From NCBI RefSeq assembly GCF_003148465.1, contig NZ_QGGI01000003.1:91940-155939 (forward strand): a DNA stretch of 64,000 nucleotides, read 5' to 3'. The stretch comes from Oceanotoga teriensis. Its GTDB lineage: Bacteria > Thermotogota > Thermotogae > Petrotogales > Petrotogaceae. Numbering within the stretch: position 1 is the first letter of the stretch; every line of letters begins with the position of its first letter. The notes under the pieces are model-generated. The model saw only the letters and a program-made list of their open reading frames with translations. It was not told the origin of the DNA and searched no databases. The position numbers and the translations under genes were made by a program. This document shows positions 21,216-39,900 of the stretch, piece by piece.

Positions 21216-21351
21216 AATATATTATAATTGCCAGAAAATAATTAGTTTTTTTATATATTTTTAAAGTTTTTTAAGGTCTATAAGGTATTATGTTCTGAAT
21301 GTTTTATATAAAATATGATAGAATATAATAAAAAAATGGGAGGTAGAAATA

Positions 21352-22628
21352 TGAAAAAATTTAGTATGTTTCTTTTGATTATTAGTTTTTTTGTGATATC
21401 TTTTTCTAGTGTGACTGATTTTATACCTAATGATTCCAAAGCTACTTTTTATATAAAGAATCTATCTAATACTTATGAAAGTTTGAAAACAGTTCCTACT
21501 GTGGGGAGTTTTTTATCTGATCCAATAAATGCAGAAATGTATGTATCAAATTTTGTTGAAAGTTTTTTAGCATCTATGGGTATAGAACCAAAGGATTTTT
21601 TTGAATCGTTAAAGACTGATATGGCTATTTTTATACAGGAACCAGAAGAAAATACTTATATTTTTGGGATTATTTTTGGTGAACTTAAAAATCCTAATAA
21701 ATTTTATGATTCTGTATCCAAAATAATAGAGCCTTTATCAGAATCCGGTATAAGTTTTAATCCAATATATAAAGAAATTTCAGGCAAAAAATATTTGATT
21801 ATGGTTCAAGATAAATCAATTTATGAAGACAGCAAGAAGGGAGATATTAAATTTTATGAACAATATGAAAATGGAATCTATTTTAATATAAATTCTTCAG
21901 ATTTGAAAAATACAGGTTTTGCTTATATAAAAGATAACTATTTAATTGGAACTTCTACAGGAAATTTAAATGAAGATTCTGTAAATCAAAAATATTTAAA
22001 AGATGTTTCGGATTATAATTTTCTTGGTACTGCTTTTCTCGCATCTGGTTTTTTACCTAAAGATATAAATTCGATAAAAGAAATTATAAGTATAGTAGCC
22101 GAACCATCTATTGTTGAAAATATATTGAAGTCTTCAAATGGATTTGAAGTTAATTCTAATATAGATATAAATATAGAAGAGAACATAAAAATTTCAAATA
22201 CCAGTTATGTAAAAATTGATACGAGCACACAATTAAAAAATATAGAACCTATAATGAAGGAAAATAAATTAAAATATAATTATTTGGATGAAAACCATAT
22301 GGAATTTGAAATAAAAATAGATGAAAATATATCAAATACTGAAATGAAAGCTTTAAAATATAATATGTGGAAAAAATCCGATAATATTTTTATTTCAGAA
22401 GATAATGAAGAAAATTTAAATAAAAAACTTCAAAATTCTATTAAACTTTCAGAAAACAAAACATATGAAGAATTATCAAAAAAAATAGGTACAGCAAACT
22501 TAGTATTAGCTTTTGTAGATTTTTCTAAATTCTTTGAAAAATTTGGAGCTTCAGAAAATTTTGGTTTTTTATTAAATGTGAATTATTTGGGAAATGGAGC
22601 TATGAAGGCTGATTTTGTGTTAAAATAA
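21352..22628 (+). CDS. hypothetical secreted protein
   Basis: GGGAGG RBS; signal peptide MKKFSMFLLIISFFVISFSS. Confidence 0.5.
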
Positions 22629-22688
22629 TTGATTAAACCAAAAAATCTTAACTTGACAAAATTAAAATAAAATTATAAAATCTATAAT

Positions 22689-22750
22689 GCACAATGAAGT
22701 GTTAAAAGCGATGAAGCTATGCGAATAATAATTCGCATAGCTTTTTTTTA
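22689..22750 (+). promoter_or_regulatory. ANTAR-type dual hairpin (P1 and P2) overlapping an intrinsic terminator, eutG leader
   Basis: P1 GCAC-AAUGAA-GUGU; P2 AGC-GAUGAA-GCU, whose 3' arm is the 5' arm of the terminator GCUAUGCGAAUAAUAAUUCGCAUAGC followed by U8. Confidence 0.65.
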
Positions 22751-22765
22751 TTTATGAGGAGGGAC

Positions 22766-23926
22766 ATGATGAATTATTTCGGTTTAAGAACAGAAATTTA
22801 TTCTGGAGAAAATAGTTTAAATAAATTAAATGAAATCAATTTAAAAAAAATATTTATAGTTACAGATCCTTTTATGGTAAAGTCTGGAATGATTGATAAA
22901 ATAACTGAAAGTTTAAAAAAAGATATTGAATATAAAATATTTTCACAAATAGTTCCTGACCCACCATTAGAAGTTATAATGAAAGGTGTAAATGAGCTTA
23001 ATGAATTTGAATCTGAAGGAATAATTGCACTCGGTGGAGGCTCTGCTATAGATGCTGCAAAAGCAATAAGTTGTTTTTTTAATAGAATAAATGAAAAAAA
23101 GAGTAATATAAAAAATAAAACACTTTATTTTATAGCAATACCTACTACTTCTGGAACTGGTTCTGAAGTTACAAGTTTTTCAGTTATAACTGATAAAGAA
23201 AAAAATATAAAATATCCACTCATATCAGATGAATTATTGCCTAATATGGCTATTTTAGATCCGGAATTAGTTAAATCTGTACCCGATTTTATAACAGCTG
23301 ATACTGGAATGGATGTTTTAACACATGCTATAGAAGCTTATGTTTCTACTGAAGCTAATGATTTTACAGATGCTCTTTCGGAAAAAGCAATAAAAATAGT
23401 ATTTGAATATTTAAAAAGAGCATATAAAAATGGAAATGATACTCAAGCAAGAATAAAAATGCATAATGCTTCATGTATTGCAGGTATTGCTTTTAACAAT
23501 GTTTCATTGGGATTGAATCATGGAATGGCACATATTCTTGGAGGGAAATTTCATATTCCACATGGTAGAGCAAATGCTATATTATTACCTTATGTTATAG
23601 AATATAATGCTGAATTAGGAAATTATTTGGATAAAAAAACATCAACAACTGCAAAAAGATATGCCAATATAGCAAAAATACTTGGATTATCTTGTTCAAA
23701 TACTAAAATAGGCGTAAAAAATTTAATTTTTGAGATAAATAAATTAAAAAAAGAATTGAATATACCAAATTCAATAAAAGAAGTTGGTATAAAAGAAAAT
23801 GATTTTGATCAAGCTTTAGACTTTTTATCACAAAAAGCAATTGAAGACAGATGTACTGAAACTAATCCAAGAAAGCCAAAGGTAGAAGAAATAAAAACTT
23901 TATTTAAAAAAGTATATAATGGATAA
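22766..23926 (+). CDS. eutG: iron-containing alcohol dehydrogenase (ethanolamine utilisation)
   Basis: Fe-ADH motifs (GGGSAID, HGxAH); location in the eut locus. Confidence 0.8.
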   Translation: MMNYFGLRTEIYSGENSLNKLNEINLKKIFIVTDPFMVKSGMIDKITESLKKDIEYKIFSQIVPDPPLEVIMKGVNELNEFESEGIIALGGGSAIDAAKAISCFFNRINEKKSNIKNKTLYFIAIPTTSGTGSEVTSFSVITDKEKNIKYPLISDELLPNMAILDPELVKSVPDFITADTGMDVLTHAIEAYVSTEANDFTDALSEKAIKIVFEYLKRAYKNGNDTQARIKMHNASCIAGIAFNNVSLGLNHGMAHILGGKFHIPHGRANAILLPYVIEYNAELGNYLDKKTSTTAKRYANIAKILGLSCSNTKIGVKNLIFEINKLKKELNIPNSIKEVGIKENDFDQALDFLSQKAIEDRCTETNPRKPKVEEIKTLFKKVYNG

Positions 23927-23988
23927 TAATATTAAAAATAAAGAATAATTTTTTTAAAAATTTAATAATCTGTAAACTTAATTTTAAG

Positions 23989-24018
23989 TTGACAAATTAC
24001 ATGATAATAATGTAAAAT
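23989..24018 (+). promoter_or_regulatory. sigma70-like promoter (TTGACA, 18-nt spacer, TGTAAAAT)
   Basis: consensus -35 and an extended -10 upstream of the eutS leader. Confidence 0.5.
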
Positions 24019-24033
24019 AAAAAGAGAAAAAAT

Positions 24034-24122
24034 GCACAATGGAGTGTGTTTATTAAAAATAAGCAAAGAAGCTTCTAAAAGAATACATTATTTCATATTC
24101 TTTAGAAGCTATTATTTTTTTA
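24034..24122 (+). promoter_or_regulatory. ANTAR-type dual hairpin overlapping a terminator, eutS leader
   Basis: P1 GCAC-AAUGGA-GUGU; P2 AGC-AAAGAA-GCU; P2 3' arm lies inside the terminator AGCUUCUAAAAGAAUA...UAUUCUUUAGAAGCU followed by a U-run. Confidence 0.7.
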
Positions 24123-24153
24123 TAAAATAAATTTAAGAATGGTGATAAATAAA

Positions 24154-24498
24154 ATGGAAGAAAAACAAAGAACTATACAAGAATATGTTCCTGGAAAACA
24201 AGTAACATTAGCTCATTTAATAGCAAATCCAGATACAGACTTATATAAAAAATTAGGATTAAATGTACAAACTAAAGAAGCTATAGGTATACTCACTATA
24301 ACTCCAAGTGAGGCGGCAATAATCGCAGCAGATGTTGCTACAAAAGCTGCGGGAGTTAAAATAGGTTTTGTTGATAGATTTAGCGGATCATTAGTTATAA
24401 CTGGAGATGTTGGAAGTGTAGAAGCTGCATTAAAAGATGTTGTTAAGATGCTTATAAATACATTGAAATTTTCTGGTACAAATATAACGAGGACTTGA
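24154..24498 (+). CDS. eutS: BMC shell protein EutS/PduU type (permuted BMC-H)
   Basis: [27 protein letters not shown]-terminus typical of EutS; RBS before the ATG at 24154. Confidence 0.8.
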
Positions 24499-24935
24499 AT
24501 ATGAAAAAAATAATGCTTATTGGTAAGACTGGAAGTGGTAAAACAACTTTTTGTCAAGCTTATAAAAATCAAGAATTAATATATAAAAAAACACAAGCCA
24601 TAGACTTTATGGATGAATTAATAGATACTCCGGGAGAATATATAGAAAATAGAGTCTATTACAAAGCCTTAATAGTGACTTCAAATGAGTGTGATATCAT
24701 TTGTTTCCTTAATGATCCTACTTCTGATGAAAGTTTTTTACCACCAGGATTTGCAAGTATGTTTAATAAAGAAACTATTGGACTTATAACAAAAATAGAA
24801 AAATCTTCAAATGAAAACATAAAGAAAGCTGAAGAAAATTTAAAATTATCTGGAGTAGAAAAAATTTTTAAGATAGATAACTTTTCGAAGAAAGGATTTG
24901 AAGAGTTGGAGAATTATATAAATAGTTTGTCATAA
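24495..24935 (+). CDS. eutP: EutP/PduV-family GTPase
   Basis: P-loop GKTGSGKTT; 146 aa. Confidence 0.8.
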
Positions 24936-24946
24936 TGAGGTGAATT

Positions 24947-25360
24947 ATGAAAGAAAAAATAGTAATAGCTGATGATGAGCCTATTACAAGGCAGGATTTA
25001 CGAGAAATCCTTGAAATAGCCGGATACAATGTTGTAGCGGATGCTTCTGATGGGTTTGATGCTGTAGAACTATGTAGAAAATTTAAACCTGATCTCGTTT
25101 TAATGGACATAAAAATGCCTTTGTTGGATGGCTTAAATGCTTCAAAAATAATAACTTCAGAAGGATTAGCAGGTGGGGTTATATTATTAACAGCCTATAG
25201 TGATGAAGATTTTATAGCAAAAGCCAAAAAATCAGGTGTTATAGGTTACTTAGTTAAGCCTATTGATGAAAGATCTTTAATACCATCCATAGAAATATCT
25301 TTAAGTAAATGTGTTGAAATAAATAGAATGAAAGAAGATATAAAAAAAGCCAATAAAAAA
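24947..25360 (+). pseudogene. eutV: eutV 5' fragment (receiver domain of the ANTAR response regulator), truncated by an IS insertion
   Basis: CheY-like receiver (DDEP...D54-like...K); the reading frame ends in a TGA supplied by the first bases of the IS. Confidence 0.8.
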
Positions 25361-25402
25361 TGAACTGACCCATGTCAAGTAGACACAAAAATTAATAAAA
25401 AA

Positions 25403-26221
25403 TTATATACAATTGGATGCTTGGTTTCTGAACTCAACAGGAGCCATGCATCCAAGTTTTTTCTGGAATCTACGATTGTTATAAAAATCAATGTATTTGT
25501 GAATAGCTTTCTCTAATTCTTCAAGAGAATTAAACTTCTTACCATAAAACATCTCAGATTTAAGAGTACCAAAAAATCCTTCCATAGGGCCATTATCTAT
25601 ACATTTACCAACACGAGACATACTTTGTGTCATTTCAGATTCTTCTAGTTTAGTTTTAAATACTCTACCAGTATATTGAAATCCCCTGTCACTATGAAAT
25701 ATTGGTTTAGCTTCTGGATATTTTTCTATTGCTTTATCGAACATTTTGAATACAAGTCTGTTGTCGTTTCTATATGATGTTTCATATACCACTATATCGT
25801 TACCATGTAGATCCATTACAGGACTTAAATAAAGTTTTCTTGTATCTGTTGGTATTGAAAACTCAGTTACATCTGTCAACCATTTTTCATTTGGGTTTTC
25901 TGTACTGAAATCTCTGGATAGTATGTTCTCTTTTGTGTATTCAGGTTTTGTCCTCTTACGATTAATTTTCTTTCTTCTTATCCTGGAAGATACTCCTAAA
26001 AGTTTCATCAGTCTGTGTATATAACCTTCAGAATATTCTTTTTGGTTTAATCTGTTTATGTACATGGTCATTCTTCTGTATCCAAGTATCCCGTCATATG
26101 TAGCATGGTATTCTTGAATTAGATTACATATAGTTTCATCTTGAATTTCTTTTTGTGGTTTTTCCCTTTTTTGATTTTTGTAGTATGAACTTCTGGATAT
26201 TTTCAACACATCACACAACAT
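25403..26221 (-). CDS. IS3-family transposase OrfB (rve integrase core; made as OrfAB by a -1 frameshift)
   Basis: LCDVLKISRSSYYK start typical of IS3/IS150 OrfB; DDE core (HSDRG...). Confidence 0.8.
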   Translation of the reverse strand: MLCDVLKISRSSYYKNQKREKPQKEIQDETICNLIQEYHATYDGILGYRRMTMYINRLNQKEYSEGYIHRLMKLLGVSSRIRRKKINRKRTKPEYTKENILSRDFSTENPNEKWLTDVTEFSIPTDTRKLYLSPVMDLHGNDIVVYETSYRNDNRLVFKMFDKAIEKYPEAKPIFHSDRGFQYTGRVFKTKLEESEMTQSMSRVGKCIDNGPMEGFFGTLKSEMFYGKKFNSLEELEKAIHKYIDFYNNRRFQKKLGCMAPVEFRNQASNCI

Positions 26222-26280
26222 TTTAACTGTGTATCCTTTGGTTTTGTAGTAATCTACCGTTTTGTATTCACCATATTGTT

Positions 26281-26985
26281 TTACTCTCGAGATTCTCTTT
26301 CTTTTTGGAATTCCTCTTTTTTTTTATGTACTTCTAACTCAAAAGCTAATCTTTTGTTTTTAGCTCTTTCTCTTTCCAATTCAAGTTTTAATTTCTGATT
26401 TTCTGTCAGTTCATCTTCTTTTATGTCAGTTTTAGATTTAGGACCACGTTTCCCATATTTGAGTGATTCAGGACCTTTGTTTAAATACATCTTTGTCCAT
26501 TTATATACTGAAGAATATTTTATTGCATGTTTATCTGCAGCTTCTTTGTAGTTCATATCGTTGTTTATTACCCATTTAACTATTTCTAATCTTTCTTTGT
26601 ATGTAGTTTTTCTTGACTCCATGGTATAGACATCTCCTTTCGGATCATAATCTTTCAATTCTATACCATTATAATACTTATTTATCCAATTTTTTATTAT
26701 TGAAACATGAATATCATATTTTACTGATAAATCCATGGCTGAAAATTTTCCATCTATGTATTTTTTAACTACAAATAGCTTGAATTCCTTACTGTATGAT
26801 TTATTTCTTTTTGTTATTTCAAATACTTTTTCTCCATGTTGTATATATCTGTGATACCAATCACTTAAAGATGATTTATCACATCCCACTGATTTTGATA
26901 TACTTTTGAAACTTCCTTTTCCTGCTATGTAATCTTTACATGCTTTTACCTTTGTTTCTTTACTATATTTCCCTTTTCTCGACAT
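26281..26985 (-). CDS. IS3-family transposase OrfA (HTH)
   Basis: DNA-binding HTH and leucine-zipper region; ends inside the A AAA AAA AAG frameshift window. Confidence 0.8.
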   Translation of the reverse strand: MSRKGKYSKETKVKACKDYIAGKGSFKSISKSVGCDKSSLSDWYHRYIQHGEKVFEITKRNKSYSKEFKLFVVKKYIDGKFSAMDLSVKYDIHVSIIKNWINKYYNGIELKDYDPKGDVYTMESRKTTYKERLEIVKWVINNDMNYKEAADKHAIKYSSVYKWTKMYLNKGPESLKYGKRGPKSKTDIKEDELTENQKLKLELERERAKNKRLAFELEVHKKKEEFQKERESRE

Positions 26986-27055
26986 AATAAATATACCTCC
27001 AAAGCAGCTTTGTAATTTTTATTAATTACGTGTCTACTTTGGAGGTATCATATCA

Positions 27056-27220
27056 AAACTTGAAGATAGAAAAATTATAGAAAAAGCAAAGGGTATACTA
27101 ATGGAAAAAGAAAATTTATCTGAAAAAACTGCTTTTGAAAGAATAAGAACATTAAGTATGAATAAAAGATGTTCTATGAAAGATATAGCAGAGGCTATTG
27201 TGATAAGTTATGAAGAGTAA
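27056..27220 (+). pseudogene. eutV: eutV 3' fragment (ANTAR domain)
   Basis: KLEDRKIIEKAKGILMEKENLSEKTAFERIRTLSMNKRCSMKDIAEAIV is a canonical ANTAR motif; it is in frame with the 5' fragment once the IS and one AAA copy are removed. Confidence 0.8.
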
Positions 27221-28616
27221 AATATGTGAATTATGTAAAAAATATACAGACCTTGATGAAGAAGATATAAAAATATTAGAAAACTATTCTTTATGTATGG
27301 ATGCAGTAGCTGATATTGAAAATGCTGATGTATTTATAGATAGTTTGACAAGAGATAATGATGAAGCTATAGTGATAGCCCAAGCTAAGCCTAAAAATAC
27401 AAAATCAATGTATAACAGATCTGTTATTGGTGAAATAGCTTATAGAAAAAATGAACCAGCAGTTTTAAGGACTTTACAACTTGGAATATCGACCAAAGAT
27501 ATAAAAGCACTAACTCAAGAAGAAGTTAGTGTAAGGCAAACAGTAGCCCCAATAAAAAATAAAGATAAAGTAATAGGAGTTTTAATCATAGAAAAAGATA
27601 TAACAGAGAAAATAAATAAAGATAAATATATGGAAGTATTGGAACAGAGTTATGAAAAGCTTACAGATACTTTGTTGTATATGACTGAAAATGATGGTAC
27701 TATAACAAATCATATTGATGAAATAATAATGATGTTTGATGAAGAGGGAATACTAAAATTTGCCAATTCAGTAGCTGAAGAATTATATTTAAAACTTGGG
27801 TACAGAGATAACCTTATAGGTATGAAATATGATAATGTTTCTCTTGATGATTCGAAGTTTAAAGATATAATAAATGAAGGTTGTATACAAGAAAGTGAGA
27901 TAAATTATGGGAAATATTTTTTTAATATAAAAAAAATAATATCCAGTAGAGAATCTTTCAAATTAATTCTAATGATTAAGGATATAACGGATATGAAAGA
28001 AAAAGAAAAAGAACTCATACTAAAATCTGTAGCAATAAAAGAAATACATCATAGAGTAAAAAATAATCTTCAAACTATTGCCAGTTTATTGAGACTTCAA
28101 TCAAGGAGATGTGTTAGCGAAGAAGCTAAAAATGCATTAAATGAAAGTATGAATAGAATTTTAAGCATATCTGCTACTCATGAAATACTTTCTCAAGAAG
28201 GTCTTGATGAACTTTATATATTTGAGGTTATAAAGAACATAAAAACAAGTATTATGCGGGCTTACAGAAATCCGAATGCAGAACTTATAATAAATTTAAT
28301 GGGTGATGATTTCAAAATAAGCTCTGATAAATCAACATCTATAGCTCTCATAATAAATGAATTACTTCAAAATTGTATAAAATATGCTTTTATAGGGAAA
28401 GAAAAAGGACAAATAGATATAAAAATTGAAAGAGGTGATTTATATTCTACAATATCAATTATAGATAATGGTATTGGTTTTGATATAAATCATATGAAAA
28501 AAAATAGTCTTGGTTTTACAATAGTAGAGAGTCTTGTCAAAGACAAACTTTATGGTAATATAAAAATAAATTCTGATAAAAATGGAACGAAAGTTTTGTT
28601 TGATTTTAAAAATTAA
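27210..28616 (+). CDS. eutW: sensor histidine kinase EutW
   Basis: HHRVKNNLQ H-box and an HATPase_c C-terminus; overlaps the eutV 3' end as in Firmicutes eut loci. Confidence 0.8.
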   Translation: MKSKICELCKKYTDLDEEDIKILENYSLCMDAVADIENADVFIDSLTRDNDEAIVIAQAKPKNTKSMYNRSVIGEIAYRKNEPAVLRTLQLGISTKDIKALTQEEVSVRQTVAPIKNKDKVIGVLIIEKDITEKINKDKYMEVLEQSYEKLTDTLLYMTENDGTITNHIDEIIMMFDEEGILKFANSVAEELYLKLGYRDNLIGMKYDNVSLDDSKFKDIINEGCIQESEINYGKYFFNIKKIISSRESFKLILMIKDITDMKEKEKELILKSVAIKEIHHRVKNNLQTIASLLRLQSRRCVSEEAKNALNESMNRILSISATHEILSQEGLDELYIFEVIKNIKTSIMRAYRNPNAELIINLMGDDFKISSDKSTSIALIINELLQNCIKYAFIGKEKGQIDIKIERGDLYSTISIIDNGIGFDINHMKKNSLGFTIVESLVKDKLYGNIKINSDKNGTKVLFDFKN

Positions 28617-28625
28617 ATAATAAAA

Positions 28626-28695
28626 TACAATGATGTATTAAAAAAAGCAATGAGGCTTAAAACTATTTTTTATAGTTTTAAGCCTTTTTATTTTT
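28626..28695 (+). promoter_or_regulatory. ANTAR-type dual hairpin overlapping a terminator, eutA leader
   Basis: P1 UAC-AAUGAU-GUA; P2 AGC-AAUGAG-GCU; terminator AGGCUUAAAACUAU-UUUUU-AUAGUUUUAAGCCU followed by a U-run. Confidence 0.7.
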
Positions 28696-28714
28696 CAAAA
28701 GAAGGTGTCGTTGA

Positions 28715-30145
28715 ATGAAAGAAAAGTTTTTAAGTGCAGGTATTGATATAGGAACTTCTACAACGCAACTTGTTTTTAGTGAAATAACTATAGAAAATAT
28801 GGCTTCTGATTTTACAGTTCCAAGAATAAAAATAGTAGATAAAGAAATAGTTTATAGAAGTAATATATACTTTACACCTTTGATAAATCAAAATGAAATT
28901 GATGGTGAAAAGGTAAGAGAAATAGTTGAAATTGAATATAAAAAAGCTGGATATGAATCAGAAAATATAAAAACTGGTGCAGTTATTATAACTGGAGAAA
29001 CAGCAAGGAAAAAAAATGCAAATGAAGTTTTACAAAATCTTAGTGGATTAGCAGGAGATTTTGTAGTTGCGACAGCTGGACCAGATTTAGAATCAATAAT
29101 TGCAGCTAAAGGTGCTGGAGCAGATATTTTATCAGAGAAAAAAAGAAATACAGTTGTAAATCTCGATATAGGTGGAGGAACTACAAATTTAGCTGCTTTT
29201 CATGATGGAATTCTTTTAGATACTGGATGTCTTGATATAGGTGGAAGATTGATTAAATATGATAATTATAAAAAAATTACATATATTTCACCTAAGTTAC
29301 AAAAAATAATAGAAAATGAAAATATAAATTTAAAAGTTGGACAAGAGATAGATTTAATAGAATTAAAAAAAATAATAAATATTATGGTTGATTTACTTTA
29401 TCAATCTATAAACAAAAAAGAAATGAGTTCGTACTATGACTTTATTTTAACTAATAAAGGAATAAAACAAGATATAAATGTTGATTGTATAACCTTTTCT
29501 GGAGGTGTTGCTGATTATGTATACAATCAAAACTATGAAGATCTTTTTAAATATGGAGATATTGGAATTATATTGGGGAAAGCTATAAAAGAATCTAATT
29601 TATTTAAAAATATAGATATTGGACAAGCAGTTGAAACGATAAGAGCAACTGTTGTAGGAGCTGGAACACATACAACTGATATATCTGGAAGTACAATAAC
29701 ATATTCTGAGCAACTTTTACCATTAAAAAATGTGCCTATATTAAAACTTGAAAAACATGAAGAAATTTTAGATAATAAAGAATTTATATCTGTTATAAAT
29801 AAGAAAATTTCTTGGTTTGAAAATGAAAATTCTCTTCAACAAATAGCTATAGCGATAAATGGAAAAGAATATACAAAATTTGTAGATATACAAAATCTTG
29901 CACAAAATCTAATAGATGGAAGTAAAAAATTATTAGATTTGGGCTATCCATTAATAGTAATAGTAGAAAATGATATAGCAAAAGTATTAGGTCAAACTCT
30001 AAATAGCAAATTAAATTATAAAAAAGAATTAATTTGTATAGATGGAATAAAGGTTGAAAACGGAGATTATATAGATATTGGTAAACCTTTGGCCGAAGGT
30101 AAAGTATTGCCTGTTGTTATAAAAACTTTAGTTTTTAATTCATAA
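28715..30145 (+). CDS. eutA: ethanolamine ammonia-lyase reactivase EutA
   Basis: 476 aa; ASKHA-fold start GIDIGTSTT. Confidence 0.85.
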
Positions 30146-30169
30146 AAAATGAATGAAGGAGTGACTATA

Positions 30170-31534
30170 GTGAAATTAAAAGCCAAATTATTTGGTCATA
30201 CGTATTCTTTTAAATCGATAATGGATGTTATGGCTAAAGCTAATGAAGAAAAATCTGGAGACAAGCTTGCAGGAATATCGGCTAATTCTTCAGAAGAAAG
30301 AGTTGCAGCAAAAGTAGTTTTATCTGAATTGACTTTAGAAGATTTGAGAAATAATCCAGCAGTTCCATATGAAGAAGATGAAGTTACAAGAATAATTCAG
30401 GATCAAGTAAATGAAAAAATATATGCTGAATTAAAAAATAAGACAGTCTCTGAATTTAGAGAATGGATACTTGATGAAAATACTACTGGAGAAATGATAA
30501 GAAGAGCTAGTAGAGGGATAACAAGTGAAATGGTTGCGGCTGTTGCAAAATTAATGTCAAATCTTGATTTAATATATGCTGCGAACAAGATAGAAATAAC
30601 TGCTCATTGTAATACAACTATAGGATATAAAGGCAGATTATCTGCAAGATTACAACCAAATCATCCTACAGATAATCCAGATGGAATATTAGTATCATTG
30701 ATGGAAGGATTAAGCTATGGAGTTGGAGATGCTGTTATAGGTTTAAATCCAGTTGATGATTCTGTTGAAAGTGTTACAAGAGTACTCAAAAAATTTGAAG
30801 AATTTAAACAAAAATGGGAAATTCCAACACAAAATTGTGTTTTAGCTCATGTAACAACACAAATGGAAGCTATAAAAAAAGGTGCACCATCAGATCTTAT
30901 ATTTCAGAGTATTGCTGGATCTCAAAAAGGGAATGAAGCTTTTGGGATAACTGGAGAAATGATAGAAGAAGCAAGACAACTTGCATTAAAAGAGGGTACT
31001 GGAGCAGGACCTAATGTTATGTATTTTGAAACAGGTCAAGGTTCAGAGTTATCAGCAGATGCTCACAATGGAGTAGATCAGGTTACTATGGAAGCGAGAT
31101 GTTATGGATTTGCAAAAAAATATGATCCTTTTCTTGTTAACACAGTTGTTGGATTTATAGGTCCTGAATATTTATATGATAGTAAACAGGTTATAAGAGC
31201 TGGACTTGAAGATCATTTTATGGGAAAACTCACAGGTATATCTATGGGCTGTGATGCTTGTTATACAAATCATATGAAAGCTGATCAAAATGATATAGAA
31301 AATCTTGCTGTACTTTTATCTAATGCAGGCTGTAATTATTTTATGGGTATTCCCCATGGAGATGATGTAATGCTTAACTATCAATGTACAGGTTATCATG
31401 AAACTGCAGCATTAAGACAATTATTGGGATTAAAACCTATTAAAGAATTTGAAATTTGGTTAGAAAAAATGGGTATTATGAATAATGGAAAATTAACTGA
31501 AATTGCCGGAGATGCTTCAATATTTCTTAAATAA
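30170..31534 (+). CDS. eutB: ethanolamine ammonia-lyase large subunit
   Basis: VKLKAKLFGHTYSFKS N-terminus typical of EutB; GTG start after a GAAGGAG RBS, so the track ATG at 30149 is unlikely. Confidence 0.9.
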   Translation: MKLKAKLFGHTYSFKSIMDVMAKANEEKSGDKLAGISANSSEERVAAKVVLSELTLEDLRNNPAVPYEEDEVTRIIQDQVNEKIYAELKNKTVSEFREWILDENTTGEMIRRASRGITSEMVAAVAKLMSNLDLIYAANKIEITAHCNTTIGYKGRLSARLQPNHPTDNPDGILVSLMEGLSYGVGDAVIGLNPVDDSVESVTRVLKKFEEFKQKWEIPTQNCVLAHVTTQMEAIKKGAPSDLIFQSIAGSQKGNEAFGITGEMIEEARQLALKEGTGAGPNVMYFETGQGSELSADAHNGVDQVTMEARCYGFAKKYDPFLVNTVVGFIGPEYLYDSKQVIRAGLEDHFMGKLTGISMGCDACYTNHMKADQNDIENLAVLLSNAGCNYFMGIPHGDDVMLNYQCTGYHETAALRQLLGLKPIKEFEIWLEKMGIMNNGKLTEIAGDASIFLK

Positions 31535-31546
31535 AGAGGTGGGAAA

Positions 31547-32455
31547 ATGCAACTTGAAAGCAGTGAATTAAAAAAATTAGTTGAACAAGTTTTAAATGAA
31601 ATGACTTCAGGTAACACAGAAAAAGTAAAAGAAGAAGTTATTAATAAAGTACAACAAACTAATAATATAACATCTGATTCTAATATAGAAGAAGGTTGTA
31701 TTGAAGATATAACAGAAACAGATTTAAAAACTCAGTTATTAGTTGAAAATCCAGCTGATAGAGAAGGATATTTAAAAATGAAACAAAATACTCCAGCAAG
31801 AATAGGAGTTGGAAGAGCAGGAGTTAGATATAAGACATTATCTTCTTTAAGATTTAGAGCAGATCATGCCGCAGCTCAAGATGCTGTTTTTTCTTATGTA
31901 TCTGATGAGTTTTTAAATGAAATGGGACTTTTCACAGTTCAAAGTAAGTGTAAAACAAAAGATGAATATATAACTAGACCTGATTTAGGAAGGAAAATAA
32001 ATGAAGAAGGTATTGATCTGATAAAAGAAAAATGTAAAATAAATCCAACAGTACAGATATTAATTGCAGATGGATTAAGTTCTTCAGCTATAGAAGCAAA
32101 TTTAAAAGATATACTTCCATCAATTGTACAGGGGCTAAAAGGTTTTAATATAGATATTGGAACTACATTTTTTGTAAAACTTGGTAGAGTTGGAGTTATG
32201 GATCATGTTTCAGAAATAACGAATGCAGAAGTTACTTGTTTATTAGTTGGAGAAAGGCCAGGGCTTGTTACTGCTGAAAGTATGAGTGCTTATATTGCAT
32301 ACAAAGCTAAAGTTAACATGCCAGAAGCAAGAAGAACAGTTATATCTAACATACATAAAGGTGGTACTTCTGCTGTAGAAGCAGGTGCTCATATTGCTGA
32401 GCTTATAAAAACTATGTTAGAGAAAAAAGCAAGTGGAATTGAATTAAAAGCTTAG
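31547..32455 (+). CDS. eutC: ethanolamine ammonia-lyase small subunit
   Basis: conserved EutC core plus an amphipathic N-terminal extension ([13 protein letters not shown]) typical of encapsulation peptides. Confidence 0.85.
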
Positions 32456-32466
32456 GAGGTAAACTT

Positions 32467-33120
32467 ATGAAAAATGATGCTTTATATGCAAAAGTATTGA
32501 GTACAAAAATAATATCAAATGTAAGTCCTGATCTTGCAAATGAGTTAAAATTAAAATCTCATCATAAAAGTTTAGGTTTGATAAGTGCTGATATAGATGA
32601 TGTTACATACACTGCTTTAGATGAAGCAACAAAAGCAGCAGATGTTGAGGTTGTTTATGCTAAATCTATGTATGGTGGTTCTGCGAATGCAAATACTAAA
32701 CTTGCTGGTGAAGTTATAGGTATTATAGCAGGACCAAATCCAGCAGAAGTAAGAAGTGGATTGAATGCTGCGATAGATTTTATTGAAAGTGGAGCACATT
32801 TTATATCAGCAAATGAAGATGATTCAATTACATATTATGCTCATTGCGTATCGAGAAGTGGATCATTTTTATCAGAGACAGCTGGAATACAAGAAGGAGA
32901 ACCTATAGCTTATTTAATAGCACCACCTCTTGAAGCAATGTATGCATTAGATGCTGCATTAAAAGCGGCAGATGTTAAAATGGCTACATTATATGGACCT
33001 CCTTCAGAAACAAATTTTGGTGGAGCATTATTAACAGGAAGTCAATCGGCATGTAAGGCAGCATGTGATGCATTTGCACAAGCAGTTCAACAAGTAGCAG
33101 AAAATCCTACAAATTATTAA
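32467..33120 (+). CDS. eutL: BMC-T shell protein EutL (tandem permuted BMC domains)
   Basis: 217 aa; MKNDALYAKVLSTKIISNVSPDLA start matches EutL. Confidence 0.85.
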   Translation: MKNDALYAKVLSTKIISNVSPDLANELKLKSHHKSLGLISADIDDVTYTALDEATKAADVEVVYAKSMYGGSANANTKLAGEVIGIIAGPNPAEVRSGLNAAIDFIESGAHFISANEDDSITYYAHCVSRSGSFLSETAGIQEGEPIAYLIAPPLEAMYALDAALKAADVKMATLYGPPSETNFGGALLTGSQSACKAACDAFAQAVQQVAENPTNY

Positions 33121-33132
33121 GGCTAAATAATA

Positions 33133-33642
33133 ATGAATGCTTTGGGTTTAATAGAAGTATATGGATATTTGGGTGCTATTGAAGCTGCCGATTCAGCACT
33201 TAAAGCTGCAAATGTTAAATTGATTGACTGTGAGAAGGTAAGAGGTGGTTTAGTATGTGTGAAATTAACAGGTGATGTAGGAGCTATAAAAGCTGCTGTA
33301 GATGTTGCAGAAGAAAAAACTAAAAATTTGAATGTATATGTATCAAGCCATGTTATCGCTAAACCAGATGATTCATTAAAAAAAATATTAGAAATAAATA
33401 AAAAAATAAATACTGAATCAAAAAAAGAAATAATAAAAGAAGAAAAAAGTGAAGTTTCAAAAATAGAAACAGATAATAAAATTATATTTACAAAAGAAGA
33501 ACTTGAATCAAAAACTGTGGAAGAACTTAGAAGAATGGTAAGAAATATAAAAAGTTCAATGTCAAATAAACAAATAAAGTATGCAAGAAAAGACAAATTA
33601 ATAGAAGAATTATCCCGTTATTATAAAAGGGGGAATAAATGA
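33133..33642 (+). CDS. BMC-H shell protein with a roughly 75-aa lysine-rich C-terminal extension (EutK-like position)
   Basis: N-terminal BMC domain (LGLIEVYGYLGAIEAADSALKAANV) followed by a K/E-rich tail. Confidence 0.7.
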   Translation: MNALGLIEVYGYLGAIEAADSALKAANVKLIDCEKVRGGLVCVKLTGDVGAIKAAVDVAEEKTKNLNVYVSSHVIAKPDDSLKKILEINKKINTESKKEIIKEEKSEVSKIETDNKIIFTKEELESKTVEELRRMVRNIKSSMSNKQIKYARKDKLIEELSRYYKRGNK

Positions 33643-35108
33643 TGTTGCAGGATAAAGACTTATTATCAATACAAGAAGTAAGAGATTTAGTAAAAAAAGC
33701 AAAAGAAGCTCAAAAAATTCTTGCTAATATGAATCAAGAACAGATAAATAAAATAGTAAAAGCAATTTCAGAAGCTGGTTATACAAATAGAGAAAAATTG
33801 GCTAAAATGGCTCATGAAGAAACTGGATTTGGAAAATATCAGGATAAAATAGTAAAAAATACATTTGCCAGTAAAGTGGTTTATGAAAATATAAAAGATT
33901 TAAAAACTGTAGGTATTTTAAATGAAGATAAAGAAAATAAAATATTAGAAATTGCTGTACCAGTAGGAGTTGTAGCTGGATTAATTCCATCAACAAATCC
34001 AACTTCAACTGCAATTTATAAAGCAATGATAGCTTTAAAAGCAGGAAATTCAATAGTTTTTTCACCACATCCAAATGCTAAAAAATGTATATTAGAAACT
34101 GTAAAAGTTATAAAAGAAGCTGCTTTAAAAGCAGGAATGCCTGAAGATGCTATTTCTTGTATAAGTATTCCAAGTATGCAAGGAACTACAGAATTGATGA
34201 AACATGATGATGTTTCTCTTATACTTGCAACAGGTGGTTCGGCTATGGTAAAAGCTGCCTATAGTTCGGGTACTCCTGCAATAGGTGTTGGACCGGGAAA
34301 TGGACCAGCTTTTATTGAAAAATCTGCAAATATAAAATTAGCTGTAAAAAGAATAATAGATAGTAAAACATTTGATAATGGTACTATTTGTGCTTCTGAA
34401 CAATCCATTGTTGTAGAAAAAGAAACTGAAGAAAAAGTTGTAAAAGAATTAAAAGCTCAAGGTGCATATTTTATGACAAAAGAAGAAGCAGACAAATTGT
34501 CTAAATTTATCTTGAGATCAAATGGAACTATGAATCCTCAAATAGTTGGTAAAAGTCCACAAGTTATAGCTGATCTTGCTGGAATAAAGATTCCTGAAAA
34601 TACAAAGGTATTGATAGCCTACGAAGAAAATGTTGGTCCTAAATATCCATATTCAAGAGAAAAATTAGCTCCAATACTTGCTTTCTATGTTGAAAAAGAT
34701 TGGAAATCGGCATGTGACAGATGTATTCAAGTTTTATACAATGAAGGTGCTGGCCATACAATGATAATTCATAGTGAAAATGAAAAAATAATAAAAGAAT
34801 TTGCATTGAAAAAACCAGTATCAAGAATTTTAATAAATACTCCAGGTTCATTGGGTGGAATAGGAGGAACAACAAATTTAGTTCCTGCATTAACACTTGG
34901 ATGTGGTGCTGTTGGAGGAAGTGCTACATCAGATAATATAGGACCTATGAACTTAATAAATATAAGAAGAGCAGTATATGGAATACGTGAACTTGAAGAT
35001 TTAAAAGAAAATAAAGATTCAAATGAAAACAATAATACAATTTCTGAAGATTATGTAAATTTAATAGTTGAAAAAATAGTACAAAAATTAAAAGAAAAAA
35101 TAAATTAA
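33639..35108 (+). CDS. eutE: CoA-acylating acetaldehyde dehydrogenase
   Basis: ALDH fold with catalytic Cys (GTICASEQS); N-terminal amphipathic helix typical of an encapsulation peptide. Confidence 0.85.
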   Translation: MMLQDKDLLSIQEVRDLVKKAKEAQKILANMNQEQINKIVKAISEAGYTNREKLAKMAHEETGFGKYQDKIVKNTFASKVVYENIKDLKTVGILNEDKENKILEIAVPVGVVAGLIPSTNPTSTAIYKAMIALKAGNSIVFSPHPNAKKCILETVKVIKEAALKAGMPEDAISCISIPSMQGTTELMKHDDVSLILATGGSAMVKAAYSSGTPAIGVGPGNGPAFIEKSANIKLAVKRIIDSKTFDNGTICASEQSIVVEKETEEKVVKELKAQGAYFMTKEEADKLSKFILRSNGTMNPQIVGKSPQVIADLAGIKIPENTKVLIAYEENVGPKYPYSREKLAPILAFYVEKDWKSACDRCIQVLYNEGAGHTMIIHSENEKIIKEFALKKPVSRILINTPGSLGGIGGTTNLVPALTLGCGAVGGSATSDNIGPMNLINIRRAVYGIRELEDLKENKDSNENNNTISEDYVNLIVEKIVQKLKEKIN

Positions 35109-35140
35109 ATTAATTATTCATCTCAAAGGAGGTTTTACAA

Positions 35141-35425
35141 ATGCCAAGTTCAAATGCATTAGGTATGGTAGAAACAAGAGGATTGGTAGGTTCAATAGAG
35201 GCAGCAGATGCAATGGTAAAAGCTGCTAATGTAACATTAGTAGGTAAAGAACATGTTGGTGGTGGATTAGTAACTGTAATGGTAAGAGGTGATGTAGGAG
35301 CCGTTAAAGCAGCAACTGATGCAGGAGCAGCAGCAGCAGAAAGAGTTGGGGAATTAGTATCTGTACATGTAATTCCAAGGCCACATTCTGAAGTAGACGC
35401 AATATTACCTAAAGTACAAGGTTAA
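35141..35425 (+). CDS. eutM: BMC-H shell protein EutM/PduA type
   Basis: 94 aa canonical BMC domain ([26 protein letters not shown]). Confidence 0.85.
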
Positions 35426-35485
35426 TAATTATAAGGCTGTCTCAAACAAAAAATTGAGACAGCCATTTTATAAGGATGTGAAATA

Positions 35486-36223
35486 ATGAGTTTATTAACC
35501 GAAAATGAAGTGAAAAAAATTATAAAAGAAAACAAAGATAAAATAATAATAGATGATAAAACTATAATAACTCCTTCAGCTAAAGAGTTAATAGATGGTA
35601 AGAAAATAAAACTCATTAGAGAAAAGGAATTGAATAAAGTATTTAAAGATGAAAAAGAAAATAAAAAAAATACACCAAAGTTTAAATATATATATGGTGG
35701 TTATTATGATGAAAAACCTGAACATCTTACTCAATTATTTGGTAATAATCTTGTCCCAAAAAATCATAAAAGAATAATTTTTAGAGGTAAAATAGATAGT
35801 TTAGAATCTAAAATATTAGAAGTTCAAGTATATTGTAAAAATAATAAAAAAGAAAAACTATTAAAAGATTTAGAAGATGTTCTTATTTTTGTAAGAAAAA
35901 TTTTAAGAGCAGAAGTATTAGATGAAGAATTAAAAGATTTTAACCTTATAGGTTTAAATGAAGAAGAAATACATGAAATGTCACATTATCCTAAAAAATA
36001 TTTTGGTATAGGGCATATTTTTCCTGAATATACCATGGGAGATTATGTAATATATTTAAACTCTATTAGAAGTCTTGTAAGAGAAACTGAAATAAGTGCG
36101 TACAATGCTTTTTCTAATTCAGAAAATGAAATAAGTAGACTTGATATAATAAAATATTTAAATAGATTAAGTAGTTGCTTATATGTAATGATGTTTAAAT
36201 ATTTATCTGGAAAATATAATTAA
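35486..36223 (+). CDS. ATP:cob(I)alamin adenosyltransferase (PduO-type; EutT-equivalent) with an N-terminal 45-aa module
   Basis: LFGNNLVPKNHKRIIFRGKIDSLESKILE resembles the PduO/MMAB N-terminal motif; position as in Firmicutes eut loci. Confidence 0.5.
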   Translation: MSLLTENEVKKIIKENKDKIIIDDKTIITPSAKELIDGKKIKLIREKELNKVFKDEKENKKNTPKFKYIYGGYYDEKPEHLTQLFGNNLVPKNHKRIIFRGKIDSLESKILEVQVYCKNNKKEKLLKDLEDVLIFVRKILRAEVLDEELKDFNLIGLNEEEIHEMSHYPKKYFGIGHIFPEYTMGDYVIYLNSIRSLVRETEISAYNAFSNSENEISRLDIIKYLNRLSSCLYVMMFKYLSGKYN

Positions 36224-36243
36224 ATTTAAGAGGTGTACTTTAA

Positions 36244-36855
36244 ATGGAAAAAATTATAGAAAAAATAACTGATAAGGTTATAAATGAATTATTTATAAAA
36301 GTAGAAGCTTCTGGAAGACATGTACATCTATCTCAGGAACATTTAGAGTTATTATTTGGAAAAAATTATAAATTAACAAAAACTAAAGATCTTTCACAGC
36401 CTGGTCAATATGCTTGTGAAGAAAGAGTGACCTTAATAGGTCCAAAAGGAAAAATAGAAAATGTTGTTATTTTAGGACCTGTTAGAAAAAATACTCAAGT
36501 AGAAGTTTCTAAAACAGATCTTAGACCATTGGGATTAAATGCTCCAATTAGAGAATCTGGAGATATAAAAGGTTCTGGTTCAATAAAGATAAAAACAGAA
36601 AAAACTGAATTAGAAATAAAAGAAGGACTAATAATAGCTAAAAGACATATTCATATGACTCCAGAAGATGCTAAAAAACATGGAGTTAAAGATAAAGAAA
36701 TAGTAAATGTAAAAATTTTTTCAAATAGACCTTTAATATTTGAGGATGTAGTTATAAGAGTTAGTGATAATTATAAAACTTTTATGCATATAGATTATGA
36801 TGAAGCAAATGCATGTGGATTCAAGAAAGACACTTTAGCAATTATAAAAAAGTAG
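36244..36855 (+). CDS. pduL: phosphate acyltransferase PduL type (EutD functional equivalent)
   Basis: two PduL repeats with GRHVHLS and RHIHM motifs; N-terminal amphipathic helix. Confidence 0.8.
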   Translation: MEKIIEKITDKVINELFIKVEASGRHVHLSQEHLELLFGKNYKLTKTKDLSQPGQYACEERVTLIGPKGKIENVVILGPVRKNTQVEVSKTDLRPLGLNAPIRESGDIKGSGSIKIKTEKTELEIKEGLIIAKRHIHMTPEDAKKHGVKDKEIVNVKIFSNRPLIFEDVVIRVSDNYKTFMHIDYDEANACGFKKDTLAIIKK

Positions 36856-36862
36856 CTATAAG

Positions 36863-37522
36863 GTGGGGAAAAACTTGAATACTAAAGAATTAGTTGAATT
36901 AATAACTGTTGAGGTAATTAAAAGATTAAAATTAAAAAATAAAAAGAAATTATTGGTTTTAAATGAAGGATTTAAAAGTTTAGATGATTTATTAACAGAT
37001 TATGAAATAATTCATTATTCTGAAGATCTTGAATTAAAAGATTTTGATGAAATTTATTTAGGAAAAATGGATTTAAAGATGATTTCACATTTGGCCAATG
37101 GAATAATAATAAATGAAATAGAAGATTTAATTTTAAAATCTCTTCTGAAGGATAAAAAAATATTTTTATTTTCTGAAGATATAGAATTAAAAAAATTCAA
37201 TAATACTAAAAACACAAATTTATATAAAATTTTTAATCAAAATATTGAAAATATAAAAAATATCGGAATAATAATATTAGATGAAAAAATAGATATAAAA
37301 GAAAATATAAACATTAATACAAAATATAAAAATGAAGTTAAAGAAGAAGATTCAATAATTTTAAAAAATAAATTAATAACAGAAAATGAGTTAAAAAAAT
37401 TAGGATTAAAAAATGGATCGAAAATAAATATTGGAAATAAATCCATAATAACTCCTCTTGCAAAAGATTATATAAGAATACATAAAATAAGACTGACTAA
37501 AAGTCAGGAGGAAAAAATATGA
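36863..37522 (+). CDS. hypothetical eut-locus protein
   Basis: K/N/I-rich; its C-terminal 45 aa are homologous to the N-terminus of the adjacent adenosyltransferase. Confidence 0.4.
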   Translation: MGKNLNTKELVELITVEVIKRLKLKNKKKLLVLNEGFKSLDDLLTDYEIIHYSEDLELKDFDEIYLGKMDLKMISHLANGIIINEIEDLILKSLLKDKKIFLFSEDIELKKFNNTKNTNLYKIFNQNIENIKNIGIIILDEKIDIKENININTKYKNEVKEEDSIILKNKLITENELKKLGLKNGSKINIGNKSIITPLAKDYIRIHKIRLTKSQEEKI

Positions 37523-37791
37523 TTATTGCAAAGGTAATCGGAAATATATGGGCTACGAGAAAAGATGAAAAATTAAATGGATTTAAATTTTTAGTTGTTA
37601 AACAATGTAACACTCAAACAGATAATCAATTTGTTGCAGCAGATATGATTGGTGCTGGAATAGGGGATACTGTACTAATAACAAAAGGAAGTTCGGCAAG
37701 GAATTCTCTTGAAAATACAAATATACCAATTGATGCAGTAATTGTTGGGATAATAGATAGCCTTGAAGTGGATGAAGGATTATTAAAATAA
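37519..37791 (+). CDS. eutN: BMC vertex protein EutN/PduN/CcmL family
   Basis: MIIAKVIGNIWATRKDEKL; 90 aa. Confidence 0.8.
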   Translation: MIIAKVIGNIWATRKDEKLNGFKFLVVKQCNTQTDNQFVAADMIGAGIGDTVLITKGSSARNSLENTNIPIDAVIVGIIDSLEVDEGLLK

Positions 37792-37804
37792 AGGTGATTA
37801 TATT

Positions 37805-38329
37805 ATGTTTAAATCAATTGGAATAATAGAAACGAGATCAATAGCTTTTGGTTATGAAATAGCGGACAAATTATTAAAAGATTATGATGTTGAACTATTA
37901 CAATGTAAAACAAAATGTCCAGGGAAATTTATTATAATAATATGTTCAGATACTCAAAATGTAAACGATGCAATTATTAGTATAAAAAGACATAAAAATT
38001 TAATAGGGAATTTGTTGATTTCAGATGCTCATCAAAAATTAATAGATGGCTTAAAAAATAAATTTGATACATATAAAAATGGTGCAATAGGTATAGTAGA
38101 ATCTTTAGATATAGTTACAGGTATTAATAGTCTTAATAAAATTTTAAAAAATAATAATGTAAATTTACTAAAATTAAATCCATCGATTATGATAGGTGGA
38201 AAATGCTATTTCATAATAAATGGAGATCTTAGTTCTGTAGAACAGGCAATATTTGGGGGCATAGATAAAAAAAGATTACAAACAAGTGTAATAGCAAATC
38301 CTGATACAGAATTAATAAGTAAATTATAA
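37805..38329 (+). CDS. PduT-like BMC-T shell protein (candidate Fe-S cluster site)
   Basis: two tandem BMC domains; CPGKF and GIGGKCY motifs aligning with the PduT 4Fe-4S cysteine. Confidence 0.7.
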   Translation: MFKSIGIIETRSIAFGYEIADKLLKDYDVELLQCKTKCPGKFIIIICSDTQNVNDAIISIKRHKNLIGNLLISDAHQKLIDGLKNKFDTYKNGAIGIVESLDIVTGINSLNKILKNNNVNLLKLNPSIMIGGKCYFIINGDLSSVEQAIFGGIDKKRLQTSVIANPDTELISKL

Positions 38330-38346
38330 AATGGGGAGGAAAACAA

Positions 38347-39438: not shown

Positions 39439-39450
39439 GGAGTTGTTAAA

Positions 39451-39900
39451 ATGGAAATAAATAAAGAAATTATAGAAAATATAGTTAGAGAAATTTTAAC
39501 AGAAGGATTAAAAAATAATTCAGAAATAAAGAAAAATATAGAACCTTTGTCAGGAATTCTTTCTGTTGATATGAATACAGTTAAACCAGAAAAATTTGAT
39601 ACTGGAAAAGAAGGAGATCAAGTTTATTTAAAAGACATATTAACATTAGAAGAAAGTCCAAGACTTGGAGCAGGTTTAATGGAAATGAAAGAGACAACAT
39701 TCGATTGGACTTTAGAATATGATGAGGTTGATTATATAATAGAAGGTACACTTGAAATCAATATAAACGGCAAAAAAGTTAAGGCCAGTGCCGGAAATGT
39801 AATATTTATACCTAAAGGATCATCAATACAATTTTGTGTGCCAGATTACGCCAAATTTCTATATGTTACCTATCCAGCAGATTGGGCATCTCAAAAGTAA
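39451..39900 (+). CDS. eutQ: EutQ (cupin-fold ethanolamine utilisation protein)
   Basis: 149 aa; cupin C-terminus; last gene of the island. Confidence 0.7.
   Translation: MEINKEIIENIVREILTEGLKNNSEIKKNIEPLSGILSVDMNTVKPEKFDTGKEGDQVYLKDILTLEESPRLGAGLMEMKETTFDWTLEYDEVDYIIEGTLEININGKKVKASAGNVIFIPKGSSIQFCVPDYAKFLYVTYPADWASQK

Follow-up and report, generated by a model that had tools for sequence, protein, structure and literature searches.

Insertion of an IS3-family element into the regulatory gene eutV of Oceanotoga teriensis and its probable effect on the ethanolamine-utilization locus

Results

The eut locus and the interrupted eutV gene

We analysed a 64-kb stretch of DNA (the window; G+C content 26.8%) from the oil-well bacterium Oceanotoga teriensis. 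The window contains a complete ethanolamine-utilization (eut) locus at 22754-39900, in which the regulatory gene eutV is interrupted by an insertion sequence (IS) of the IS3 family. According to the list of open reading frames (ORFs) and their Pfam matches, the gene order is eutG-S-P-V-W-A-B-C-L-...-H-Q. The locus starts with eutG (iron-containing alcohol dehydrogenase), eutS (bacterial microcompartment, BMC), eutP, a receiver ORF of 138 aa, a pair of transposase ORFs in the reverse orientation and eutW. It continues with eutA, eutB, eutC, eutL, further shell proteins, eutE (aldehyde dehydrogenase), eutT, a gene for a PduL-type phosphotransacylase, eutN, eutH and eutQ. Apart from eutV, all eut ORFs are intact and have full-length Pfam matches.

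The 5′ part of eutV (24947-25360, plus strand) comprises codons 1-138 and encodes the receiver (Pfam Response_reg, residues 5-115) and most of the coiled-coil helix. The truncated ORF (24947-25363) has the C-terminal end ...KKANKK, followed by a TGA at 25361-25363. A first-pass annotation of this DNA had placed the end of the 138-aa frame at a TGA that is the first triplet of a 1695-bp element, and we confirmed these coordinates. A residue check showed that the residues of the phospho-acceptor site (D9, D10, D54, T82 and K104) are all kept in the truncated product. The RNA-binding residues R142, K143, K147 and F164 (EutV numbering; F164 is the aromatic residue stacking on loop G4) are lost from it and are encoded only 3′ of the IS. 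The receiver and the RNA-binding residues are not encoded in a single polypeptide by this allele, as the ORF ends at residue 138.

The 3′ remnant of eutV (27059-27220, plus strand) consists of codons 139-191 and the stop codon, and by Pfam, structure-based alignment (PDB 6WSH) and residue check it holds the whole RNA-binding part of the ANTAR domain. In its frame, the nearest upstream stop is at 27023, and ahead of L139 only an ATC (27047) and an ATA (27050) are allowed as start codons by translation table 11. Both sit 1-4 nt past a GGAGG in the tip of the IS (27041-27045). The first ATG of the remnant is M153, before which there is no canonical start codon. The following gene, eutW (27210-28616, plus strand; ORF list and Pfam), encodes a sensor kinase with GAF_PdtaS, HisKA_2 and HATPase_c domains. 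The gene shares its first 11 nt with the end of eutV, and no obvious Shine-Dalgarno sequence of its own was seen.

The inserted element

The element occupies 25361-27055 on the minus strand, antisense to eutV. Read on that strand, it begins with TGATATGATACCTCCAAAGTAGACAC and finishes with ...GTGTCTACTTGACATGGGTCAGTTCA. The former is the terminal inverted repeat at the orfA end (IRL; TGATATGATACCTCCAAAGTAGACAC; 27030-27055, minus strand), whose tip is kept in relatives at 68-69% nucleotide identity; its counterpart at the orfB end (IRR) is TGAACTGACCCATGTCAAGTAGACAC (25361-25386, plus strand). The right end had been described as the reverse complement of the left. This held for the TGA tips and for a 10-nt core (AAGTAGACAC), which are exact, but the repeats as a whole are imperfect and match at 18 of 26 positions. 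The ends (TGAACTG.../TGATATG...) are of the TG...CA type, and a degenerate pattern covering both had no other match in the window and none in shuffled sequence.

The element has two consecutive ORFs. The product of orfA (26281-26985, minus strand; 234 aa) contains the helix-turn-helix domains HTH_28, HTH_Tnp_1 and HTH_23 (ORF list and Pfam). An A9G slippery site at 26316-26325 (minus strand; IS positions 731-740) is the predicted site of a programmed −1 frameshift. There the orfB frame (25403-26325, minus strand), which is −1 relative to orfA, opens directly after a TAA that overlaps the slippery site; it includes an ATG-initiated ORF of 272 aa (25403-26221) and encodes an rve-type DDE integrase. 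Pfam matched the transposase to rve, rve_2, rve_3 and HTH_21. A conceptual OrfAB fusion of 528 aa scored 335.2 bits with the NCBIfam IS3 transposase model (NF033516 transpos_IS3; cut-off 160), and its catalytic triad, located by motif, is D373, D434 and E470 with spacings of 60 and 35 and a K at +7. The reading frames and the motif, which recurs at the same position in four relatives (L063, L045, L069 and L071; L numbers denote the comparison contigs introduced below), suggest that orfA and orfB are joined by programmed −1 frameshifting at A9G.

The earlier call of an IS3-family element with an orfA/orfB pair and an A9G site was therefore borne out by the 335-bit match, the spacing of the DDE residues, the −1 architecture, the TG...CA ends and the 3-bp target-site duplications (TSDs). 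On these sequence features, an rve DDE transposase with D,D(35)E plus K, an orfB in the −1 frame, TG...CA repeats and a 3-bp TSD, we assign the element to the IS3 family. In the folded 5′ leader of the IS (26981-27055, minus strand; minimum free energy −29 kcal/mol), the terminal repeat ACCUCCAAAGUAG pairs with the Shine-Dalgarno region of orfA, CUGCUUUGGAGGU. This predicted pairing looks like the classic device by which the ribosome-binding site of the transposase is masked in transcripts that begin outside the element.

Target duplication, empty site and restored gene

Comparison contigs from strains, metagenomes and genomes (L-numbered) were found by exact-protein look-up or by a terminal-repeat scan. 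The IS is flanked by AAA at 25358-25360 and at 27056-27058. In other Oceanotoga genomes and metagenomes, the empty site reads AATAAAAAACTTG; the contigs that encode a EutW identical to that of the window read GCCAATAAAAAACTTGAAG across the site, which equals the window flanks minus three A's. The identical EutW adjoins an intact eutV in L001-L009. Because the empty sites carry three fewer A's (L001-L009), the AAA repeats, first proposed as a TSD from the window alone, are a true duplication. The target was an A6 run after codon 138, of which AAA was duplicated.

Joining 24947-25360 to 27059-27220, which removes the IS and one AAA, gave a gene of 576 bp and 191 aa. All 576 bp are present as an exact string in six contigs (L002-L005, L008 and L009). 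This exact match, together with the shorter empty site, shows that the AAA duplication and the reconstruction are correct. Thus an uninterrupted 191-aa EutV, with 100% nucleotide match to intact alleles and with Pfam receiver and ANTAR domains, was recovered as had been predicted.

Pfam gave the restored EutV 96.6 bits for Response_reg (residues 5-115) and 76.2 bits for ANTAR (residues 134-186), and a coiled coil joins the two domains. The alignment to EutV homologues that the first-pass annotation had proposed as a check supported the reconstruction: with Enterococcus faecalis EutV (PDB 6WSH), the restored protein shares 55% identity over 186 residues (E 7.7e-62), without gaps and with coinciding residue numbers. 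The match to Rv1626 had an E value of 7.5e-45. The restored gene has the marks of a EutV, namely a receiver with a phospho-acceptor Asp plus an ANTAR domain, and a EutW neighbour in a eut cluster.

Since the solved EutV structure aligns without gaps, the domain boundary is settled. The break lies at K138/L139, where the coiled coil meets ANTAR; the Pfam ANTAR model begins at residue 134, so that this point already falls a few residues within the model. PMC8934654 names L139 as the final heptad residue of the coiled coil, and the break is just ahead of the E140 construct of that study, in which all RNA-binding residues are kept. This ANTAR-only construct is monomeric and still binds RNA weakly, with lowered affinity (PMC8934654). 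In another study, ANTAR without the coiled coil bound approximately 100-fold more weakly than ANTAR with it (PMC3369931). The first-pass annotation had put the insertion precisely between receiver and ANTAR. Functionally 'between the domains' is right, but the IS did not enter a spacer, as the Pfam ANTAR model already begins at 134.

Other copies of the element and the age of the insertion

The same element was found in eight contigs with 99.9-100% identity, starting and stopping exactly at positions 1 and 1695 (same-ended copies in L013-L020 and L022). The boundaries of the element are fixed because the identity of eight or more copies begins and ends at these positions. The proposed check of ends and TSD on aligned copies, all outside the genome of the window, gave exact ends and the duplications GAT/GAT, TTT/TTT and GTT/GTT. 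Some short metagenome contigs carry unmatched IS flanks, as expected for assembly across a repeat. At least two other insertions (among L013, L018 and L022), one of which reads aaaaccctcatat-tGAT[IS]GATatgagggtttt, hit the loop of a terminator-like hairpin, which hints at a preference of the IS for hairpin loops or AT-rich triplets.

One copy is in strain UFV_LIMV02 (L022, positions 4931-6625; GCA_030587775.1, JAMHJO010000004.1). It is 1695 bp long, 100% identical and flanked by GTT, and it breaks up a chemotaxis-receptor (methyl-accepting) gene, leaving fragments of 234 aa (dCache) and 425 aa. This strain thus has the identical IS with a 3-bp TSD, as in the window, but its eutV is intact. In the part of PMC11326445 considered here, the region is listed as 'genomic island 4' without a description of gene disruption, and the RAST labels of the copy are 'InsK for IS150' and 'ISSth1 orf1, IS3 family'.

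Only two sources carried the 138-aa product: a single NCBI assembly and the Logan assembly of the SRR7081813 reads. In the NCBI records, the product (PWJ95938.1), orfB (PWJ95939.1) and orfA (PWJ95940.1) are consecutive, and EutW is PWJ95942.1. The source names of window-identical proteins are Oceanotoga teriensis and Oceanotoga sp. According to PMC11326445, NCBI had only two O. teriensis genomes, UFV_LIMV02 (JAMHJO...; L004, L022 and L100 here) and DSM 24906 (QGGI...). As eutV is intact in UFV_LIMV02, the protein accessions and this paper leave the type strain DSM 24906 as almost certainly the host of the interrupted allele. At least 24 contigs encode an intact 191-aa EutV, among them the complete T3B genome (CP107547.1), UFV_LIMV02, a metagenome-assembled genome and several metagenomes. 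Two metagenomes (3300034683 and 3300037528) have the IS at other sites together with an intact eutV.

After removal of the IS and the TSD, 13.4 kb around eutV aligned to nine other contigs with no gaps and 44-66 mismatches (0.33-0.6%). The IS differed from the L022 copy at none of 1695 bp, where approximately 5.6-10 differences were expected at the chromosomal rate [Poisson P(0) ~4e-3 to 4e-5]. An identical IS in strains with 0.33-0.6% chromosomal divergence indicates that the IS moved or spread after the strains diverged, and hence that the eutV insertion is derived and strain-specific. The view that the insertion is recent is consistent with all three sequence comparisons: the flanks restore the gene perfectly, the locus aligns gap-free and the IS is 100% identical to copies in other strains. 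By this evidence, we conclude that the insertion is recent and strain-specific.

The Logan assembly of SRR7081813 contains two contigs identical to the window, and both IS junctions were recovered. One (contig_25) runs from eutP/eutV through nearly the whole IS and ends at 27052, 3 nt before the IRL tip; the other (contig_37) starts at 27028, 28 nt inside the IS. The cause of the break at 27028-27052 could be coverage or a second IRL-containing sequence. Exact look-ups of OrfA and OrfB found one contig in this read set. Since a de Bruijn contig passes unbroken from unique DNA into the IS and since OrfA and OrfB are on a single contig, we infer a copy number of about one in the strain of the window.

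Relatives of the element

We scanned species-representative genomes (one per species) with the degenerate terminal-repeat pattern and obtained 68 loci, all in Mycoplasmatota (Acholeplasma, Izemoplasma and others), Erysipelotrichia, Bacillales and Clostridia. Among these representatives, none of the loci came from Thermotogota, including Oceanotoga and other Petrotogaceae. The closest full-length relatives (68-69% DNA identity) were L063 (a Clostridia metagenome-assembled genome) and L045, L069 and L071 (Mycoplasmatota bacterium WC44). They have the same tips, the A9G motif at the same position and 3-bp TSDs (CAT, TTT, TTT and TTA). The 90%-identity protein cluster of OrfB includes a Petrotoga protein. 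Plasmid records gave only partial matches (19-33%) with 66-70% identity, to Firmicutes IS3 transposases, and no transfer vehicle was identified among them; in the best match, one third of the element was covered at 70% identity. Firmicutes-like ancestry has already been proposed, in the parts of the literature considered here, for the eut locus and for ~13% of the O. teriensis proteome. The relatives in Mycoplasmatota and Clostridia fit this reported heavy gene flow from Firmicutes into the lineage.

Target leaders of EutV

A search of the whole 64-kb window at Rfam gathering thresholds gave no ANTAR-target, cobalamin or EutX/Rli55-like family. B12 sensing may be absent or encoded elsewhere. 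Because Rfam gave no ANTAR-target family, EutV target sites were located by leader folding and a custom dual-hexaloop scan. Three leaders, upstream of eutG, eutS and eutA, are each predicted to fold into two hexaloop hairpins (P1, which is small, and P2) joined by a short linker, and a strong terminator that shares the 3′ arm of P2.

The eutG leader (22690-22744, plus strand) has P1 cacAATGAAgtg (loop AAUGAA) and P2 agcGAUGAAgct (loop GAUGAA), with the terminator at 22713-22744 overlapping P2. In the eutS leader (24034-24121, plus strand), the loops of P1 and P2 are AAUGGA and AAAGAA and the overlapping terminator is at 24067-24121; in the eutA leader (28625-28695, plus strand), they are AAUGAU and AAUGAG, with the terminator at 28652-28686. 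The leaders are identical in L001-L008 (eutG and eutS) and in L001-L009 (eutA).

The A1/G4 hexaloop signature, which is required in E. faecalis (PMC3369931), is present in five of the six loops. The exception is P2 of eutG (22707-22718), which has G1 in all strains; the eutG site may therefore be weaker or respond differently. Of the three intact EutV target sites reported in the first-pass annotation, all are present and show no difference from strains whose eutV is intact, but the P2 loop of eutG is non-canonical. A strict hexaloop scan of the 64 kb picked out the two eut sites that are canonical (in three overlapping calls) plus a single match elsewhere, with ~2.6 matches expected in shuffled sequence. 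The eut target sites stand out by position and by overlap with terminators, not by count.

Promoter-like sequences precede two of the leaders: TTGACA-17-TAAAAT at 22653-22681 before eutG and TTGACA-18-TAAAAT at 23989-24018 before eutS, each with 11 of 12 consensus matches. The promoter scan found no near-consensus promoter between eutW and the eutA leader. Overall, it returned 44 sigma-70-like sites, fewer than the 59 in shuffled sequence. A promoter carried by the IS and driving eutW was also considered but was not supported, as no convincing site reads out of the IS toward eutW. No intrinsic terminator was predicted on the plus strand inside the IS.

Other features of the window

A strong hairpin with a T-run is present at 35433-35471, inside the eut operon between eutM (35141-35425) and eutT (35486). 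It lacks the dual-hexaloop motif and may act as an attenuator within the operon, setting how strongly the shell and enzyme genes are expressed relative to the genes downstream. Two conserved ORFs had no Pfam match (E<=1e-5): 21315-22628 (437 aa), upstream of eutG, and 36863-37522 (219 aa), between the PduL-like gene and eutN. The Rfam matches in the window are unrelated to the eutV insertion and comprise a tetrahydrofolate (THF) riboswitch (9929-10027, minus strand), a small signal recognition particle (SRP) RNA (61025-61124, plus strand) and a tRNA (56476-56547, minus strand).

Discussion

Taken together, our data make it very probable that an IS3-family element transposed into eutV of the O. 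teriensis eut microcompartment locus, leaving a EutV without RNA-binding residues and a locus that, judging from its homologues, would be uninducible. With no EutV to bind them, the P2 antiterminator hairpins of the eutG, eutS and eutA leaders would not be stabilized. The three intrinsic terminators would then form, and ethanolamine could not induce the eut locus. Moreover, eutW would now lie behind ~1.85 kb of essentially untranslated antisense-IS RNA, with no substantial ORF translated. Translational coupling of eutW is probably lost and Rho-type polarity is possible, such that the kinase may be under-expressed.

When eutV is deleted in frame, eut induction is lost both in E. faecalis (PMC3369931) and in Fusobacterium nucleatum (PMC11796344). 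The latter study also cites the loss of microcompartments in a Listeria eutV mutant. By analogy with the E. faecalis and F. nucleatum deletions, the eut operon of the window should be uninducible, as the first-pass annotation had it, and we regard this as sound reasoning from homologues.

Several points weigh against a complete loss of expression or limit its attribution. Basal read-through of the terminators, or another ANTAR regulator in the genome, could still give some expression of eutA-Q, and so could a promoter inside eutW, where consensus-like sites are at 28426 and 28534. The eutG leader has a non-canonical P2, which makes its dependence on EutV less certain. Finally, the strain name DSM 24906 was derived from accessions and not read from the window.

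The two fragments of eutV might also act, together or separately, as a working split regulator. The receiver with the coiled coil could serve as a phosphate sink for EutW or as a dimerization decoy, or an ANTAR-only peptide could be made from the IS-borne GGAGG, which would put the eut locus in a new, signal-independent state or under dominant-negative control. The receiver does keep all phospho-acceptor residues, beyond the last stop (27023) the GGAGG is followed in frame by ATC (27047) and ATA (27050), and the ANTAR-only E140 construct binds RNA weakly (PMC8934654). However, a sink would need a full-length EutV to compete with, and none remains encoded here for it to act on. The candidate start codons are non-canonical and only 1-4 nt from the Shine-Dalgarno sequence, a peptide without the coiled coil would bind ~100-fold more weakly (PMC3369931) and the E140 monomer has reduced affinity (PMC8934654). 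The allele is confined to a single strain and so shows no sign of selection or spread. We therefore consider a functional split gene very unlikely, and signal-independent or dominant-negative control by its fragments equally improbable. A less exotic variant is that silencing of a horizontally acquired eut locus was selected for. To go by the title of a study, eut loss reportedly raises gut colonization by E. faecalis.

The chance that assembly misplaced a repeat inside eutV appears minute. The Logan assembly of the same reads does break near the IRL tip (contig_25 end 27052, contig_37 start 27028). Both junctions, however, occur in this second assembly, and contig_25 is unbroken from eutP/eutV through almost the whole IS. 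In addition, misassembly would not produce the exact 3-bp target duplication on either side of the IS, and the NCBI records of the 138-aa protein, orfB and orfA follow one another (PWJ95938-PWJ95940). It is just as hard to believe that the insertion is old and the eut locus a decaying pseudogene cluster of the lineage. The locus is thought to derive from Firmicutes by horizontal transfer, as stated in the Oceanotoga passage of Sutter et al. (bioRxiv 10.1101/2021.01.25.427685), and so could be dispensable. But the restored eutV matches intact alleles at every nucleotide, 13.4 kb of the locus align without an indel, all other eut ORFs are undamaged and have Pfam matches over their full length, and identical copies of the IS exist elsewhere. 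These findings favour a recent transposition into a previously intact eutV.

The element resembles other IS3-family members in its length (~1.7 kb), helix-turn-helix OrfA, rve DD(35)E OrfB in the −1 frame, A-run slippery site, imperfect TG...CA repeats and 3-bp TSD. It is unlike them in the A9G slippery run and in its long OrfA (234 aa), in which Pfam finds more than one helix-turn-helix region. The regulatory system is similar to EutV/EutW of E. faecalis (PDB 6WSH/6WW6; PMC3369931, PMC8934654), with eutW adjacent, the order eutS-P-V-W-A-B-C-L... and dual-hexaloop hairpins overlapping intrinsic terminators before eutG, eutS and eutA. In contrast to E. faecalis, the Oceanotoga regulator is interrupted, one P2 loop is GAUGAA, there is no leader before a separate upstream eutP and the host belongs to Thermotogota. 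The E. faecalis eut locus also has an adenosylcobalamin (AdoCbl) riboswitch upstream of eutG, whereas no cobalamin riboswitch or EutX-like RNA was detected in the 64-kb window of Oceanotoga.

The eut locus of the window is the EUT2I locus of O. teriensis described by Sutter et al. (bioRxiv 10.1101/2021.01.25.427685). According to their Oceanotoga passage, Thermotogae have no other BMC locus, and this one was probably acquired from a Firmicute. That passage is silent on an IS in the EUT2I regulator. A literature search found no paper that combines eutV with disruption by an insertion sequence, and ethanolamine is absent from the considered text of the comparative genomics paper on O. teriensis (PMC11326445).

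The finding involves no new mechanism: IS3 transposition and ANTAR antitermination act as already described, and the result is an ordinary gene knock-out in one strain. It documents a currently mobile IS3-family element in Petrotogaceae, with identical copies at several sites. The type strain appears to have the master regulator of the only catalogued microcompartment locus of Thermotogota knocked out. Experiments on ethanolamine use or on microcompartments in DSM 24906 would consequently probably fail, and strains with an intact eutV, such as T3B (DSM 15011) or UFV_LIMV02, are advisable for work on eut and its microcompartment.

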